A stretch of 64,000 bases of DNA. Source: Escherichia coli (GTDB lineage Bacteria > Pseudomonadota > Gammaproteobacteria > Enterobacterales > Enterobacteriaceae). Positions 31,486 through 39,995 of this stretch are shown one piece after another; positions within the stretch are counted from its first letter, which is position 1, and each line of letters begins with the position of its first letter. The translations under genes and the position numbers were made by a program. The stretch is taken from assembly GCF_003018255.1 (NCBI RefSeq), contig NZ_CP027440.1. One strand, given 5' to 3'. A model generated the notes under the pieces. That model was not told where the DNA came from. It did no database searches and worked only from the letters and a program-made list of their open reading frames with translations.

Positions 31486-31899
31486 TTATACCCGGACTAG
31501 CGTTTTTTCTGAAACCACCATTTTTATTTGTCCCTGACTGGTGAAGTGTACGCTCATCCTGTGGCTTTTTTGTAGTTGCTGATAAAGCTCATCAGGTATT
31601 GCTAAGCTCTCTGCATATTCTTGCGGCGTATATTGGTATGCTGCATGATGCTGCTGTTTTTTAAAACGCAGCTTATTGTACAATGCCCAGACGATTAACA
31701 CGACGGCATTCGCCACTGCCAGCAAAAAATAGAACTGAAGTCGGCTTCTGGCCTCGCTTTGCCAGTAATAACCCGTCAGCAGATCAATGGCGAATAAGAA
31801 TATGAACAAAGCAAATAATGTCCACAAGATGGTTGTGGCAACATAATCAACCAGTAAACGTACTGGCGATTGTCGGGTCGTAATAATTAGATTGTTCAT
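31486..31899 (-). CDS. pgaD: PNAG synthase accessory subunit PgaD (137 aa)
   Basis: 137-aa membrane [29 protein letters not shown]. Confidence 0.92.
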
Positions 31900-31900
31900 A

Positions 31901-33226
31901 TTAACCTCTCAGAATCCCACGATCGGGACTTACCCAACGAGCGCGTTGTTTTTTAGGCATCAACATGACTCGTGTAAATGATACCAATGTCGTTGCCAGG
32001 CTTAGCATCCAGAAAATAACCGGAAACCAAATAATCCAGAAAAGCGATGAAGCCAGATTGTGCTCATAGCGATTCTCAATTACCAGACTGACAATAAATT
32101 GCAGTAAACATAACGTGCACAATAATATTCCGGCAGTATGTGTCGCTGCGATATGTGTCAATTCAATATTTAACGGTACACCTGCAAGTTGGACTGCGTA
32201 AATAATGAAACCGACCAGGCAGGTAAAGGCCCATATTGTCGTCAGGCAGTATTCAAAAAACAGTGGCCACATTCGAAAGTTTTCTTTTCGCCACAACCTT
32301 GTCATATTTTTGAGGAATACTTCTGCACCGCCCTGAGCCCAGCGCAGGCGCTGTTTCCACAGCCCTTTTAACGTTTCAGGCATTAATATCCAGCACAGCG
32401 CCCGTGGCTCGTAAAAAATCGTCCACTGATTCAACTGCAGCTTCCAGCTAATATCAATATCTTCGGTGATCATATCGTCACTCCAGTAACCCACTTCTGC
32501 CAGGGCGCTGCGACGAAATGCGGCAATAACACCGGAAACGGTAAATACATTTCCATAGATACGCTGGGTCCGCTTGATCAAACCAATAATTGAGGAATAC
32601 TCGCCAACCTGAATTTTACCCACTAGGGTAGAACGTGTGCGAATACGAGGATTACCGGTTACGGCACCCACACGTGGGTTGTACAACATCGGTTCCACAA
32701 TATATGCCGCTGCATCGCGGTCTAATAACGCGTCGCCATCAATGCACACCAGATATTCACTTTTCGCCGCGGCAGCTCCGGTTTTAAGCGCAATGGCTTT
32801 CCCCTGGTTTTGCGCCAGATGAATGACCCGCAGACGGGGAATTTGTGCAGCCATGCGATCCAGGATGGCACGGGTTTTGTCTGTTGAACCATCATTTACG
32901 GCAATAACTTCAATGTTCTCATAACGCTGTGCTAAAGCGGCATGTATGGTTTCCTCAACGTTTTTCTCCTCATTAAAACAGGGAATGATAATGGAGATAG
33001 ATGGATTATCTTTCAACTGGGGGGCTGGTGCGTTTTCTCCCCACGGCCAGTGGCGTTCACGATAGACCCAGAAATAGACGCCGCCAATAATCCACATAAT
33101 GGACATAAAAAACGGCCAGAAGAAAACGAACCTCATCATCAGTTCACCAGAGTGAAAGTACGCTACGCATAGAGGTATGCATAACACCAGACATAATATA
33201 AAAAACGATACGATGCGATTAATCAT
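31901..33226 (-). CDS. pgaC: poly-beta-1,6-N-acetylglucosamine synthase PgaC (441 aa, GT2)
   Basis: 441-aa ORF with GT2 motifs ([18 protein letters not shown]); overlaps pgaB stop. Confidence 0.95.
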
Positions 33227-35237
33227 TTTTCGGATACCAGGCTGTTGAAAACTCAGGACGAATAACGTCTATTTCAGGTTGGTTATGCAGAAAATTGTCG
33301 GGATAATAACCATAATTTTTCACTCCATTCAGTTGTAATAGGCTCATCCAGTGAGCGAGTTGTTGTGAAGAAATAGCCTGATGCTGACCATTTTTCTGCC
33401 AGTTTTGTGCCTGTAATTCTAAAATTGATTTGTCTTTAGCCTGCGGGATGCTTTTCATCTGATTGGTCAATTGTGTTAACCATTGATCAGCCGATTTTTC
33501 TGTGACGCCTTCCATATAAGGCATAGCCATAATAGCGGTCCAGTCATAGCTTTTTAGGAAATCAGCATAATTCTGTGCAAACCAAGCTTCACTTTCAGGT
33601 TGTATTACCGGAAGTGCAAAAATATTTCGTGCAGTTTTAACATGTGGACCACGAATGGCTTTTACGCGCGCACTAAGTTCTAAAGTGAAGTCAGTTAACG
33701 CACGACTTTTAAAGCGGGTCCACTGTTTGAATTGCTCCGGGTTTTGTCGAATTTCGCTCAGACTCCCGCTAAAGCCAGCTTGCTGATAAGCCGCGATAGC
33801 CGCTGCACTGGCATCTTCATAATCTGAAAGCAAAGCATCATCGTGGAACAATATGCCATCAAAAGCAGCATGTCCGGCAAGATCATCATATAACATGCCA
33901 ACTTGTGCTCTGACCCTGTCATCGAAAGGGGAGAGACGGCGGTATTGTTCAGGATGAATTTGTGCTTTTTTCTCCCCAGTTGGTAAGTATTTTACTCGCG
34001 TTAATGTGGGATCTAAATCCCAGCTTAATACCGGCATCCACGCATAGATGTTTACACCTGAGCGGGTACGCAATTGCCAGGCAACCCGACTAAAAATATC
34101 TGCTTTCATTGGTAGCAAACGATTTGGAAACCAGACCTCTTTAACCAGCCCATCACCATCGGGATCAGCAAATGCTTGTAAATACACGGTAGATATTTGC
34201 ATATCTTTTACCCTCTGAATTAGCACATCAATATTGCGATCCATTTGCTGGCGGTTTTCGTCATAAATGTAATCAAGATCGATATGCATTACCCGTTGTA
34301 GTGGTTTTTCCTGTACGGTAATAATTTGCTGGGCAAACTCTTTTAATGAGGGATTATTGGCGATTAATACTCGCGGAATGGAATCTAATTGCGACGCATT
34401 TGCCAAACCTGATTCAAGGGTGAAGAACATGTCATAACCGAGTTTTTTTAATTCCGCGATTGCTATGCCATTCGCTTCGCCATAAGGCCAAACAAAAACG
34501 TGTGGATTTACCTCAGCCTTTGTACGCAGGTATTCCGTCATTTTTACAGCATCCAGACGAATTCTTTCCCGGTATTCTGCTGCGGTTTCATACCGTGCGT
34601 GGTCAGTAAAATATGCACGATTTACATATACAGGCAATAAGCTGCCGGTGGCATTAGCCTGAATACCGTAGTGAGAATTCCATGTATGAGAAGCGACCTC
34701 AACGAGCCGGGAACGCGCAACTTCTCGCACTTGTTGCCACGTGGCAAAATATTCTCGACTGACCATCTCATCGCCAAATTTTACTTGTTCATCCGCTGGC
34801 GTATCGACCCAACTGCCGACGGGGGCCCATACAGCAGGCCACTGGAAGGCCTGAAGAATTGGGAAGACGCGGGTATAAAAACTCTGGTAGCCGTCATCAA
34901 AAGTCAGCACTACTGCTTTTTCCGGTAGCGGTTTTCCTCCTCGATGTGCTTCACGAATTTGAGCAATACTGACCGGTTGATAACCGTTCTCGCGCAGCCA
35001 GGCAAATTGTTCACGCAGTGCTGATGTCCGCACTGACATAAAACGCTGGTCGGCAGCTTCGTCTTCAACGTTATGCCATGAAATCGCCACAAAACCATTA
35101 TGCGGCCACGGTTGCTCGGCGAGTAAAGATTCGCGATCCTGTGGCGGTATAAATGATGTTCTTGACTGGCTAATGCACGCAGTGAGCATAATTATACTCA
35201 CCAGCATCAGGATATATTTATTTCCATTACGTAACAT
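33219..35237 (-). CDS. pgaB: PNAG N-deacetylase lipoprotein PgaB (672 aa)
   Basis: 672-aa ORF with lipobox (LTACIS) and polysaccharide deacetylase domain. Confidence 0.95.
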
Positions 35238-35245
35238 ATTTATCC

Positions 35246-37669
35246 TTAAAATCTGAATGTCATATCGAATTCAACGTATAAGTTGTGTTCTCTGTCACCG
35301 TCATAAGGTCGTTTTTCCCAGCGTAGCGTTGCGCCAGCATCAATCACGTCATTCCAGCTAATACGTTGCCCGTAGCCGAGTTGGGTGACGACATCCGTGC
35401 CATAATGTTTTTGCCAGGAGGCACCAACACCTGCGCTGAAGATTTGCTCCCAGCTATTTTCATAGCTTCGCCATAACAAATGACTTGCCTCAAATGCCGG
35501 AACAATATCGAACGTTTTTATAGGGTTGTAGTATGGAGTGTCGTGTTCTGTATTTTGTTCGTAATACAGATTGGGTAGGAAATCGACAATCAAATATGGT
35601 GAAGACCAGATGCGTTCCTGACCCTCAAGTGAGACTTCCTGACGCTGGTTACTGTCGGAAAAATCAGTGAAAGCCCAGGAGACACCGTACTTACGCCGCT
35701 CATTTTGATACCAGCGAACATAAGCCTGAGCACTGTTGCCTGTAACACCATTTTTCATTGCCCGTAATGGAACGCGGTGAGAGAGGCGTTCCAGTTGCGA
35801 ACCAATACGCCAGTTATCATTAAAATCATACCAGCCAGACAGGCGCGCGCCGGGTTTATGCTCATGATTGAAAACGCGTTCAGCGTACTCCGCCTCGAGC
35901 CAGATATTACGTGACCGCCACTCAACACCCGCCAGCCAGTCGCGAACAATCCCTTTTCCTTCGCTAAATTGTCCATCGGCATAACCGAATCCAGCAAAAC
36001 CGCGCCAGTTATCCTTCAGCGGTGGTGAATAAACGATGGTGGTTAAGTCGACATCATGTTTACCACTATCCGGGCCTTCGGCATCAATTCCTGTTGAACC
36101 AGCTATACGAAGCTCTGCAAGATTATGTACATCAACCGCACGTTTTAAACGTACAACGCCGGGATCTTGCGGTTCACGTTCGACAACATCGTGCGTTAAG
36201 ACAGCTGCCTGCTGCCATTCTTGTAACGTTAATGCTGTCCATGCTTGTTCAACCTCCAGATTAATATTACGTGGCTCGATCACTTCTGCTTTTTTTAATT
36301 CATTTTCTGCTGCACGAGGCCAACCGCGGGCTTGTAACACACTCGCGTAATCAATGCGCAGTCCCTGATTTCCTGGTGCGTTATAAGCAAGCTCTCTGGC
36401 TATCATTTCAGCCTGAGGAAGATCATTACTATATTTTGCTACGGTTGAGAGAAACGAATGCCCCTGTAACCAGGTATCATTCGGGATGCTCGTAGGCGTG
36501 CCCATTAACCGAAGGAAAGGCGGCGAAGTATTAATGGTATGTTGGGTGACAGTTAGCGCGCCGGGATAATTTTCACTCTCCAGGTGGCTGTAAAAGAGAT
36601 CCGCAAGTTCTTCATCGGATAAATCCGGGGCAATGGTCTCCTTGTGATAAAAGAGCTCTGTCATTATTGACTGTGCTTTTTTTGGCTGCTGTTCTTTGAG
36701 ATAAGCCGACGCAACCCAATATTGCGCCCAGGGCGGAATAATTTGCCTCGTATTTTTTAAACGCTGATAGTGAGAAATAACGTCTTTATAACGATCGCGA
36801 GTTAATAACGCGCCAAGATGATCAACCTGAATACGCTGGTACTGGGCAGTGCGGTCTGAGTTATCGTGCCACAGAATTTCTAATGCAGCGTATTGGGCGA
36901 GGGCGCGATCGGCAATGGCATAACGTTCACTTTCACTGCGCGTAGGCATAAACGACAGTCTGATCAGTTCGGCATGAATATCAGCGCGAATATCTGGCGT
37001 TAAATTGGCATCGTCAATCGCGGCAGCTAGTTGATTATTACGTAATGCCTGCACGTATTCTGTGGGATATTGTTGCTTAGATGCATTTTCAGGTAATGAC
37101 TCTGTCATCGCCCGTAATTCATCCTGATGACGCCCCGTCAGTTTATAGATATAGGCTTCTGCGAGTAAATTGGCTTTGTCCGGCGCTCCAGATTTAAGCT
37201 GCTTAAGTTTAACCAGCGCAGTATCATAGTGACCCGCATCTGCCAGGGTTAAAATTTGTCCCCGTTGATAATCCTTATTTTGCGGCTCCAGAGAGAGCGC
37301 CTTTTGCCACAGTGTAAGCGAGTTTTGCCATTGTTGCAGGTTACGATAAGCGACGGCGACAGCTGCATAACCACGCGCTGGTAATTGCTGATGACGGTAG
37401 CGGCTGTAAACGGTAATGACCTGTTTATCTTGCCCGGCCCATAAGGCAATTTGTAACCAGTCAGCAATTTGGTTATTACTGAGTGTTGATTTTTGTGCAA
37501 ACCATGACAAAGCTGGCTGAGTATTTCCTTTGCGAGCTTCAATAATCAATGCATCATAGGCGTTATTAACAGCACTCTTCGCCGCGGGACTCGCTGCTAA
37601 AAATGCGGCAGTAAGAAGTTTCAAAGCCCATTTGGTTTTCGGGCACCTTTTTCTGCTACTTGAATACAT
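35246..37669 (-). CDS. pgaA: PNAG outer-membrane export porin PgaA (807 aa, TPR + beta-barrel)
   Basis: 807-aa ORF MYSSSRKRCPKTKWALKLLTAAFLAASPAAKSA. Confidence 0.95.
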   Translation of the reverse strand: MYSSSRKRCPKTKWALKLLTAAFLAASPAAKSAVNNAYDALIIEARKGNTQPALSWFAQKSTLSNNQIADWLQIALWAGQDKQVITVYSRYRHQQLPARGYAAVAVAYRNLQQWQNSLTLWQKALSLEPQNKDYQRGQILTLADAGHYDTALVKLKQLKSGAPDKANLLAEAYIYKLTGRHQDELRAMTESLPENASKQQYPTEYVQALRNNQLAAAIDDANLTPDIRADIHAELIRLSFMPTRSESERYAIADRALAQYAALEILWHDNSDRTAQYQRIQVDHLGALLTRDRYKDVISHYQRLKNTRQIIPPWAQYWVASAYLKEQQPKKAQSIMTELFYHKETIAPDLSDEELADLFYSHLESENYPGALTVTQHTINTSPPFLRLMGTPTSIPNDTWLQGHSFLSTVAKYSNDLPQAEMIARELAYNAPGNQGLRIDYASVLQARGWPRAAENELKKAEVIEPRNINLEVEQAWTALTLQEWQQAAVLTHDVVEREPQDPGVVRLKRAVDVHNLAELRIAGSTGIDAEGPDSGKHDVDLTTIVYSPPLKDNWRGFAGFGYADGQFSEGKGIVRDWLAGVEWRSRNIWLEAEYAERVFNHEHKPGARLSGWYDFNDNWRIGSQLERLSHRVPLRAMKNGVTGNSAQAYVRWYQNERRKYGVSWAFTDFSDSNQRQEVSLEGQERIWSSPYLIVDFLPNLYYEQNTEHDTPYYNPIKTFDIVPAFEASHLLWRSYENSWEQIFSAGVGASWQKHYGTDVVTQLGYGQRISWNDVIDAGATLRWEKRPYDGDREHNLYVEFDMTFRF

Positions 37670-37905
37670 CCTGTATTACTCCATGTATTGCCAAAATCTC
37701 TCTCTATATCTAATTACAGGTAACTGAAAAGAAAGATATTTTTGCATCTCATAATCCGTTATTAAACGCGGAAGAGACACGTGAATTGTTGATGATGAGA
37801 AGAAGAAATGATGAGCAGATTGTCCATATAAAATCCTTTTCTCGCCCGAAAATCCATTCCAATGATGAGGATCTTCAGGAATACGGCATAAATCCCAATG
37901 CCTTT
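37670..37905 (-). promoter_or_regulatory. long pgaA 5' leader carrying multiple GGA motifs (CsrA-binding type)
   Basis: Six or more GGA triplets on the transcribed strand, including one over the SD (AGGAUG at the start codon). Confidence 0.6.
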
Positions 37906-38256
37906 TTCAAAATAAATTAGGATTAAAATAATTAAATCAGTAAATTCCGATGCATAATTTCGGATTTTTCGAAAGTCCTGATGAAAGGCAGCGCTACTGC
38001 ACTCACGAATTTAATTGTTATTCCTAATGTATCTATTAATTAATGCTTTATAAGGATTTTATTATAATCCTTTATAAGTATTTGCAAGCCTGCCTTGCAG
38101 CAAAAAATGTATAAAGCATTAAAGTGATAATAATTACATTCTGCAACTATCATCATCGGTATTGTTTGTGGGTGGATTTTCATATTGACAACAGTACAGT
38201 TCTTATATCTATTAATAATAAAAAGGGATCTACAACCTACAGGTTGGTGTAGCTTT

Positions 38257-39624
38257 ATGGAAAAAGACTATTTGGGAATTAGTAGTACTGTATTAGTGAG
38301 CTTATTGTTTGGGCTTGCATTGGTTTTGGTTAATAGTTGGTTCAATCAGCCAACCGTTGAGGAAGTTGTTCCACGATCAACCTATCTGATGGTTATGATT
38401 GCTTTATTTTTTATCGATACTGTTGCATTTATTTTTATGCAGTTGTATTTCATTTATGACCGTAGGCAATTTTCAAACTGTATACTTAGTTTGGCTTTTC
38501 TAAGTTGTTTGATTTACTTTATTAAAACCGTCATTATCATTCAGCAAATTATTGAGGGGCGTTTGACAAGCAGTGTTGTTCAAAATGACATTGCAATTTA
38601 TTATTTGTTTCGTCAGATGAGTTTGTGCGTATTAATATTTCTGGCATTGGTAAATAAAGTTAGTGAAAACACAAAACAGCGCAATTTGTTTTCCAAAAAA
38701 GTGACTTTGTGCATAACTTTGTTTTTTGTTCTTGGGGGGCCGATAGTTGCTCACATATTTTCTAGCCATTATGAGAGCTACGATTTACACATTGCCGAGT
38801 TAACCAATAAAAATGGTCAGGTGGTTTGGAAAGCCTCATATGTTACCATAATGATTTTCATGTGGTTAACCTTGCTTTCGGTTAATCTATACTTTAATGG
38901 TTTACGCTGTGATATCTGGAACGGGGTGTCGGTGATTGCTTTTTGTGCCGTGCTGTACAATATCTCTCTGTTATTTATGAGCAGGTATAGCGTGTCCATT
39001 TGGTATATTAGTCGCACTATTGAAGTAGTCAGTAAGTTAACCGTTTTGGTAATTTTTATGTGCCATATATTCAGTGCGCTACGAGTAACAAAGGACATTG
39101 CACATCGCGATCCCTTAACCAATATATTTAACAGAAATTATTTTTTTAATGAACTGACGGTTCAATCAGCATCGGCCAAAAAAAAACCTTATTGCGTCAT
39201 GATTATGGATATTGACCACTTCAAAAAAGTCAACGACACCTGGGGACATCCGGTTGGCGATCAAGTGATAAAGACAGTGGTGAATATCATTGGGAAAAGC
39301 ATACGACCAGATGACCTTTTAGCGCGCGTTGGCGGCGAAGAGTTTGGCGTCTTGCTGACGGAGATCGATACTGAATGTGCGAAAGCTTTAGCGGAAAGGA
39401 TTCGGGAAAATGTTGAACGTTTAACTGGCGATAATCCTGAATACGCCATACCACAAAAAGTGACAATTAGTATTGGCGCTGTTGTAACGCAGAAAAATGA
39501 GTTAAACCCTAAGGAGATCTATCAACTGGCTGATAACGCACTTTACGAGGCGAAAGAGACCGGGCGTAATAAGGTGGTAGTAAAAGAGGCAGAAATTCTT
39601 ATCAACCGCAAGGATGATGAATGA
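38257..39624 (+). CDS. dgcT: membrane-anchored diguanylate cyclase DgcT/YcdT (GGDEF domain)
   Basis: Track ORF trimmed to ATG at 38257 (MEKDYLGISSTVLVSLLFGLALVLV); multiple TM helices then GGDEF domain (RVGGEEFGVLL). Confidence 0.88.
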   Translation: MEKDYLGISSTVLVSLLFGLALVLVNSWFNQPTVEEVVPRSTYLMVMIALFFIDTVAFIFMQLYFIYDRRQFSNCILSLAFLSCLIYFIKTVIIIQQIIEGRLTSSVVQNDIAIYYLFRQMSLCVLIFLALVNKVSENTKQRNLFSKKVTLCITLFFVLGGPIVAHIFSSHYESYDLHIAELTNKNGQVVWKASYVTIMIFMWLTLLSVNLYFNGLRCDIWNGVSVIAFCAVLYNISLLFMSRYSVSIWYISRTIEVVSKLTVLVIFMCHIFSALRVTKDIAHRDPLTNIFNRNYFFNELTVQSASAKKKPYCVMIMDIDHFKKVNDTWGHPVGDQVIKTVVNIIGKSIRPDDLLARVGGEEFGVLLTEIDTECAKALAERIRENVERLTGDNPEYAIPQKVTISIGAVVTQKNELNPKEIYQLADNALYEAKETGRNKVVVKEAEILINRKDDE

Positions 39625-39685
39625 GTCTGTCGCTAGTTGTCGACCTCCGCCTGGGGCTTCTCATCCCCCAGTGTGTGAAATATAC

Positions 39686-39716
39686 GAAAAAAAGCTCGCA
39701 CTTTCGTACGAGCTCT
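39686..39716 (-). terminator. terminator downstream of serX (bidirectional hairpin shared with the dgcT 3' end)
   Basis: agctcg-cactttcgta-cgagct hairpin flanked by A7 on plus (T7 on minus). Confidence 0.7.
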
Positions 39717-39726
39717 TCTTTAAATA

Positions 39727-39814
39727 TGGCGGTGAGGGGGGGATTCGAACCCCCGATACGTTGCCGTATACACACTTTCCAGGCGTGCTCCTTCAGCCAC
39801 TCGGACACCTCACC
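39727..39814 (-). tRNA. serX: tRNA-Ser (anticodon GGA), 88 nt with long variable arm
   Basis: Minus strand reads GGTGAGGTGTCCGAGTGGCTGAAGGAGCACGCCTGGAAAGTGTGTATACGGCAACGTATCGGGGGTTCGAATCCCCCCCTCACCGCCA; 7-bp acceptor stem, GGA anticodon, CCA end. Confidence 0.93.
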
Positions 39815-39995
39815 AAATTGTCGTTCCTGTCTTGCTGGAACGGGCGCTAATTTAGGGAAATCATGACCTGAGGTCAACAAACTTTTTTAAAAAATCGCTC
39901 GATTATTCAAACTTCAATCAATATGCAGTTTTAATAAGCGAAATTTGCTTTTTTTGCCACCGACCACGGATTTGTTATGCTGCTGGTCTTTGTAG

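Follow-up and report, generated by a model that had tools for sequence, protein, structure and literature searches.

The leader upstream of pgaA in an Escherichia coli strain is very probably the counterpart of the K-12 pgaABCD CsrA operator

Is the long, GGA-rich region that precedes pgaA in this Escherichia coli strain a CsrA-repressed leader, and is the post-transcriptional control of poly-N-acetylglucosamine (PNAG) synthesis preserved with it? In K-12, the pgaABCD mRNA has a 5′ untranslated region (UTR) of 234 nt, to which CsrA binds at six sites (Wang 2005, cited by PMC4052769; PMC7652899); these affect translation and transcript stability and, by way of Rho, elongation (PMC7652899). We analyzed the corresponding locus in a 64-kb stretch of DNA, hereafter called the window. 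The leader lies directly 5′ of pgaA, with pgaABCD divergent from dgcT (ycdT), and the gene order phoH-pgaDCBA / dgcT agrees with that of K-12. Each of the four pga reading frames matches its K-12 counterpart in length, at 96-99% identity. A 601-nt query around the leader matched several complete E. coli chromosomes at 100% identity, over annotated pgaA. The csrA gene itself is absent from the 64-kb window. The leader and its neighboring genes are the following:

37670..37903, minus strand: pgaABCD 5′ untranslated leader, +1 to +234, start placed by homology to K-12
37669..35246, minus strand: pgaA, 807 aa, the regulated gene, intact ORF
35237..33219, minus strand: pgaB, 672 aa, intact ORF
33226..31901, minus strand: pgaC, 441 aa, intact ORF
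31899..31486, minus strand: pgaD, 137 aa, intact ORF
38257..39624, plus strand: dgcT (ycdT), divergent from pgaABCD

The alignment with the characterised leader of K-12 MG1655 is free of gaps and indels, with identity at 230 of 234 positions (98.3%). The four single-nucleotide differences (+84 C>A, +126 C>G, +157 G>A and +198 C>T) leave every GGA triplet of the leader untouched. From the K-12 mapping we infer that pgaA transcription starts at window position 37903; with this numbering, the G and the C closing the predicted stem coincide with the limits published for the hairpin, +61 and +107. The interval originally proposed for the leader, 37670-37905, was right as to its location, and its 5′ boundary by homology falls two bases inside 37905. 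The start site published for K-12 contradicts a short leader, and the CsrA-repressed architecture that had been proposed is borne out by the near-identity to a leader with six published CsrA sites. We therefore hold it highly probable that we are dealing with the orthologue of the K-12 pgaABCD 5′ UTR, a multi-site CsrA operator acting at two levels. The identity of this leader as a CsrA-controlled element is already known and brings no new biology.

The original prediction had drawn attention to multiple GGA triplets on the transcribed strand, and we found eight, at +9, +44, +49, +68, +79, +147, +222 and +233 (first bases at window positions 37895, 37860, 37855, 37836, 37825, 37757, 37682 and 37671, that is, at −226, −191, −186, −167, −156, −88, −13 and −2 relative to the A of the ATG). 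Seven are contained wholly within 37670..37905, and the eighth (aGGAug) ends on the first base of the ATG, the A at 37669. Three GGAs occur on the opposite strand of the interval. Across both strands of the 64 kb, segments of 236 nt contain on average 2.8 GGA (sd 1.7); 0.74% of them reach eight, as do 2 of 540 non-overlapping segments. Mononucleotide shuffles give P=0.0018 for the GGA count of the leader, and dinucleotide-preserving shuffles average 5.3 (sd 1.5), with P(≥8)=0.076. The clustering is real against the genomic background and is not significant once the GG/GA dinucleotide content of the leader is fixed, and the GGA count by itself is a weak argument. Likewise, neither the whole-leader fold (z=−0.28) nor the +61..+107 hairpin (z=−0.12) is stabler than shuffled sequences, so that structure prediction alone would not pick out the leader. 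The assignment rests on homology to a characterised leader and not on GGA statistics. A scan of 36500..39500 on both strands with all 4227 families of Rfam 15 (E≤1) returned no match, which is no argument against the assignment.

Two of the triplets are located at the site of translation initiation, one over the Shine-Dalgarno sequence (−13) and one over the initiation codon (−2), the latter in a hairpin loop:

37679..37682, minus strand: Shine-Dalgarno GGAG (GGA +222; −13..−10), published CsrA site (PMC4052769, PMC7652899)
37663..37677, minus strand: hairpin AAUACA-GGA-UGUAUU with GGA +233 in a 3-nt loop, in minimum-free-energy and consensus folds; published CsrA site over the AUG

In this hairpin, the initiation codon begins with the last loop base and continues into the 3′ arm. 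The original prediction had merged the two sites, reading aGGAug as overlapping the Shine-Dalgarno sequence as well as the start codon; the overlap with the start codon holds, whereas the Shine-Dalgarno sequence is a separate GGAG within uGGAGu (37682..37679), nine bases 5′ of the AUG, and the GGA in it is 11 nt from the one at +233. One CsrA dimer can bridge sites that are 10-63 nt apart (PMC4052769), and mutating the Shine-Dalgarno and AUG sites in K-12 lifted about 60% of the repression (PMC7652899). The site in the AUG hairpin, UACAGGAUGUAU, resembles the SELEX consensus for CsrA, RUACARGGAUGU (PMC2896534), and is invariant in all six aligned leaders, each of which also has a GGA at the Shine-Dalgarno place.

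The second level of control described in K-12 maps further upstream. CsrA bound at two sites in +61..+81 opens a hairpin and unmasks a Rho loading (rut) site, which leads to premature Rho-dependent termination (PMC4052769). The same arrangement is found in the window, where two GGA sites (+68 and +79) lie in the left arm and the right arm belongs to a C-rich tract:

37823..37843, minus strand: left arm of the anti-terminator hairpin, +61..+81, with the two upstream-most mapped CsrA sites (GGA +68 and +79), GAGAAAAGGAUUUUAUAUGGA, identical to K-12
37797..37822, minus strand: right arm, +82..+107, the 5′ half of the Rho loading site (role from PMC4052769)
37764..37822, minus strand: C-rich, G-poor rut region, +82..+140, with the direct near-repeat UCUGCUCAUCAU / UCUUCUCAUCAU

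For the hairpin +61..+107, the window and K-12 give identical predicted pairs and an identical energy (−6.4 kcal/mol), and the hairpin is retained in the consensus fold of six leaders. The difference at +84 falls in its apical loop. The rut tract contains 19 C for 5 G and 14 YC dimers, and the C/G ratio, calculated in 78-nt segments, peaks at 2.2 near +120. The +126 C>G difference lies inside this tract, which has one C fewer and one G more as a result. This layer had been left out of the earlier account, which was correct as to CsrA control and incomplete without Rho attenuation.

The remaining triplets are distributed over the rest of the leader:

37885..37902, minus strand: 5′-terminal stem-loop, +2..+19, GGCAU/AUGCC with GGGA in the loop (GGA +9), in the minimum-free-energy fold
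37853..37860, minus strand: GGA pair +44 and +49, GGAAUGGA, mostly base-paired in the predicted fold
37755..37757, minus strand: GGA +147, AACGGAUU, from the sequence scan

The GGA at +147 is the only one between the hairpin and the Shine-Dalgarno sequence, and one of the six mapped CsrA sites is therefore probably without a canonical GGA. From its resemblance to the SELEX consensus, we presume that an ACAGAGA-like element near +197, which bears a C>T difference in this strain, is a candidate for a mapped site. The pair at +44/+49 apparently lies outside the mapped sites, going by the 2014 description (PMC4052769). The GGA at +9 has a predicted unpaired probability of 0.88-0.90, and the GCAU/AUGC stem and the loop GGA are retained in divergent Escherichia and in a Citrobacter-like relative. 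Since the two upstream-most mapped sites are those at +61..+81 (PMC4052769), the +9 triplet is apparently not among the six, which makes it a lead that is only mildly new. A terminator-like call on the plus strand at 37885..37902, obtained in the promoter/terminator scan, was discarded as it is just the reverse complement of this 5′ hairpin.

We found the leader in 4226 of 5426 complete E. coli genomes. The segment +42..+83 (42 nt, four GGAs) is 100% identical in 4070 genomes, and the segment +200..+250 (51 nt), which includes the sites over the Shine-Dalgarno sequence and over the AUG, is unchanged in 3585 and has one or two differences in 595 more. In seven diverse E. coli leaders picked to span the range of identity, all eight GGAs are invariant and the variation falls elsewhere. 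The A-run at about 37739..37743 (+161..+165) is of variable length, with A5 in the window and K-12 and A9 in CE2050 and B20105. About 1200 of the 5426 complete genomes have no leader match, the locus being apparently missing or disrupted in about 22%, and record H42 retains only the first 44 nt of the query. Matches to plasmids correspond to very large “plasmid” records, probably pieces of chromosome. In one record (L004; NZ_CP027579.1, 2013C-4282), the annotated pgaA start is 45 nt downstream of the usual AUG, which is intact together with the next 25 nt; this may reflect an annotation inconsistency or a downstream lesion.

Beyond E. coli, we aligned the leaders of three distant relatives (L008, L010 and L011), whose PgaA proteins are 88%, 79% and 74% identical, respectively. 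The GGAs at +9, +68, +222 and +233 are retained in all three, those at +44 and +49 in L008 and L010 and not in L011, and those at +79 and +147 are lost in all three. AAAGGAUUU, around +68, is invariant in the six aligned leaders. A scan of contigs with the PgaA N-terminus gave only two loci, one of them a 382-nt contaminant, and other genera were reached through homologous proteins and the contigs that encode them. The contaminant (L009; NZ_JUET01000049.1, Tannerella forsythia ATCC 43037 contig049) consists of the E. coli pgaA promoter and leader; it agrees with K-12 wherever the window differs in the aligned stretch and has one further difference, and is almost certainly E. coli contamination of the Tannerella assembly.

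Upstream of the leader, the promoter is equally close to that of K-12:

37904..38027, minus strand: pgaABCD promoter region, −1 to −124, which PMC4052769 took as the complete promoter

Four differences from K-12 were detected, at −105, −95, −87 and −53, and positions −52..−1 are identical. A scan for consensus sigma-70 promoters found none on the minus strand upstream of pgaA, which fits a promoter that depends on an activator, NhaR (PMC4052769, PMC7652899). An imperfect palindrome, AGGACUUUCGAAAAAUCC / GGATTTTTCGAAAGTCC, at −76..−59 (37962..37979) is unchanged from K-12 and is a candidate activator site, possibly for NhaR. Between pgaA and dgcT, at 38040..38122, two 13-nt arms separated by 57 nt (TTAATGCTTTATA / TATAAAGCATTAA) form a perfect inverted repeat, which encloses a 19-nt direct repeat (TAATGCTTTATAAGGATTT / TAATCCTTTATAAGTATTT). 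This nest of repeats is the part of the intergenic region most divergent from K-12, and it is located 137-219 nt upstream of the pgaA transcription start, beyond the −124 promoter fragment. At the other end of the region, the dgcT start (38257..38262) reads AUGGAA, so a GGA overlaps this start codon too. ycdT/dgcT is listed among the CsrA targets, with a single consensus site (PMC6028588), which makes targets of both divergent genes that flank the intergenic region. Directly after dgcT (region 39625..39900) comes a tRNA-Ser GGA gene (serX; 39727..39814, minus strand), followed by ghrA, ycdX and the csg genes; beside serX, the K-12 segment IS3D-ymdE-ycdU is missing, as is the integrase-bearing island of strain D8.

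Could the GGA cluster have arisen by chance from the composition of an A/T-rich intergenic region abundant in GG and GA dinucleotides, without any regulatory role here? The dinucleotide-preserving shuffles, the unremarkable fold stability and the lack of an Rfam family are all compatible with such an accident. We nevertheless give it next to no credence, given that the leader is 98.3% identical to one for which CsrA binding, relief by mutation and Rho attenuation have been published (PMC4052769, PMC7652899), that about 3600-4100 E. coli genomes have identical copies of its GGA-bearing segments, that strain differences avoid every GGA, and that the triplets are asymmetrically distributed between strands (8 vs 3). 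A more specific proposal is that the leader works mainly through a short upstream frame (AUG at +77, 21 codons, MDNLLIISSSHHQQFTCLFRV) that spans the Rho loading site, ribosomes shielding the RNA from Rho. This frame is open in the window and in K-12, and its AUG overlaps the +79 GGA, so that CsrA could repress it. Against this mechanism, the genetic test of an AUG mutant in K-12 was negative (PMC4052769), both internal differences are non-synonymous (T3N and S16C), which argues against selection on the peptide, and nothing resembling a Shine-Dalgarno sequence precedes the AUG except the +68 GGA. The leader-peptide mechanism was discarded on the strength of the published mutant and the non-synonymous differences, and we see hardly any chance that it is the main one.

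A subtler alternative retains control of the same kind and supposes that it has been retuned in this lineage, the differences at +84, at +126 and/or in the promoter shifting the balance between read-through and termination so that PNAG production differs from K-12. The haplotype of the window is indeed a minority allele, 438 of the 4226 genomes being ≥99% identical to it over 301 nt while most are 98.3% identical, like K-12, and the +126 change replaces a C with a G in the Rho loading tract. Yet the predicted pairs and energy of the hairpin are unchanged, the rut tract retains its strong excess of C over G, and no difference falls in a GGA or in the −52..−1 promoter core; we consider such retuning improbable. 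The broader proposition that either the three 5′-proximal GGAs are functional or the +84 and +126 differences retune Rho attenuation strikes us as somewhat less improbable, although still unlikely. Among these three triplets, +9 is the strongest candidate, either as an extra CsrA site or as part of a protective 5′-end hairpin whose stability would be modulated by CsrA.

Our preferred reading remains a K-12-type operator, and all of the K-12 elements being present and unchanged, K-12-type CsrA/Rho control of pga is expected in this strain. The proposal that post-transcriptional control is preserved is supported in sequence terms by the GGAs and the hairpin, as well as by the C-rich Rho loading region and the promoter-proximal 50 bp, none of which departs from K-12 in its essential features. 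Transcription would initiate at the NhaR-activated promoter, 234 nt 5′ of the pgaA AUG, a start mapped in K-12 and transposed here by near-identity. As the leader emerges, +61..+107 would fold into the imperfect hairpin, whose right arm masks the 5′ half of the C-rich Rho loading site. A CsrA dimer binding the left-arm GGAs (+68 and +79) would open the hairpin and allow Rho to load and to terminate transcription within the leader or early in pgaA. On the transcripts that escape, CsrA would occupy the GGAG at +222 and the loop GGA at +233, a spacing within the reach of one dimer, thereby excluding the 30S subunit and destabilising the mRNA. Titration of CsrA by CsrB, CsrC or McaS would relieve both blocks and allow PNAG to be made. 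Ribosome profiling has revealed an altered translation efficiency of pgaA in a csrA mutant (PMC5694010). Other layers are known as well: NhaR activates the pga promoter and is itself repressed by CsrA, CsrB, CsrC and McaS titrate CsrA, and the effect of PNPase on pga maps to the 5′ UTR (PMC4052769, PMC7652899, PMC8151843).

For annotation, the value of these observations is that the strain is expected to retain the textbook CsrA/Rho control of the synthesis of a biofilm polysaccharide, PNAG. Their comparative value lies in the distinction between GGAs that are constrained across Escherichia (+9, +68, +222 and +233) and those that are dispensable (+79 and +147), a split that could guide mutational work on the many sites of this leader.

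The closest known system is the K-12 pgaABCD 5′ UTR itself (Wang et al. 2005; Figueroa-Bossi et al. 2014, PMC4052769), which has the same locus, gene order, 234-nt length and eight GGAs, and likewise the same hairpin (+61..+107), C-rich tract for Rho loading, sites at the Shine-Dalgarno sequence and at the AUG, and promoter core (−52..−1). It differs by the four leader and four promoter changes, of which only +84 (hairpin loop) and +126 (Rho loading tract) fall within elements of assigned function. In contrast, the regions upstream of pgaA in Enterobacter, Klebsiella, Serratia, Citrobacter and Xenorhabdus cannot be aligned to the E. coli leader and contain 1 to 9 GGA per 240 nt. Like E. coli, several of these other Enterobacterales have two or three GGAs spaced 8-13 nt apart and no more than 31 nt 5′ of the annotated pgaA start. 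These pairs and triplets were observed in L012, L014, L016 and L018 (an Enterobacter cloacae type, Klebsiella aerogenes, Serratia entomophila and a metagenome contig), at −19 and −11 in the Enterobacter cloacae type, which has 9 GGA in 240 nt, at −30 and −19 in Klebsiella aerogenes, and at −31, −18 and −10 in Serratia entomophila. This organization suggests that CsrA control of pga may recur outside Escherichia. The leader also shares with the canonical CsrA-repressed leaders of glgC, cstA and nhaR its GGA motifs, including one that covers the Shine-Dalgarno sequence, a GGA in a hairpin loop, and pairs 10-63 nt apart that a dimer can bridge; what distinguishes the pgaA leader from these is its larger number of CsrA sites.
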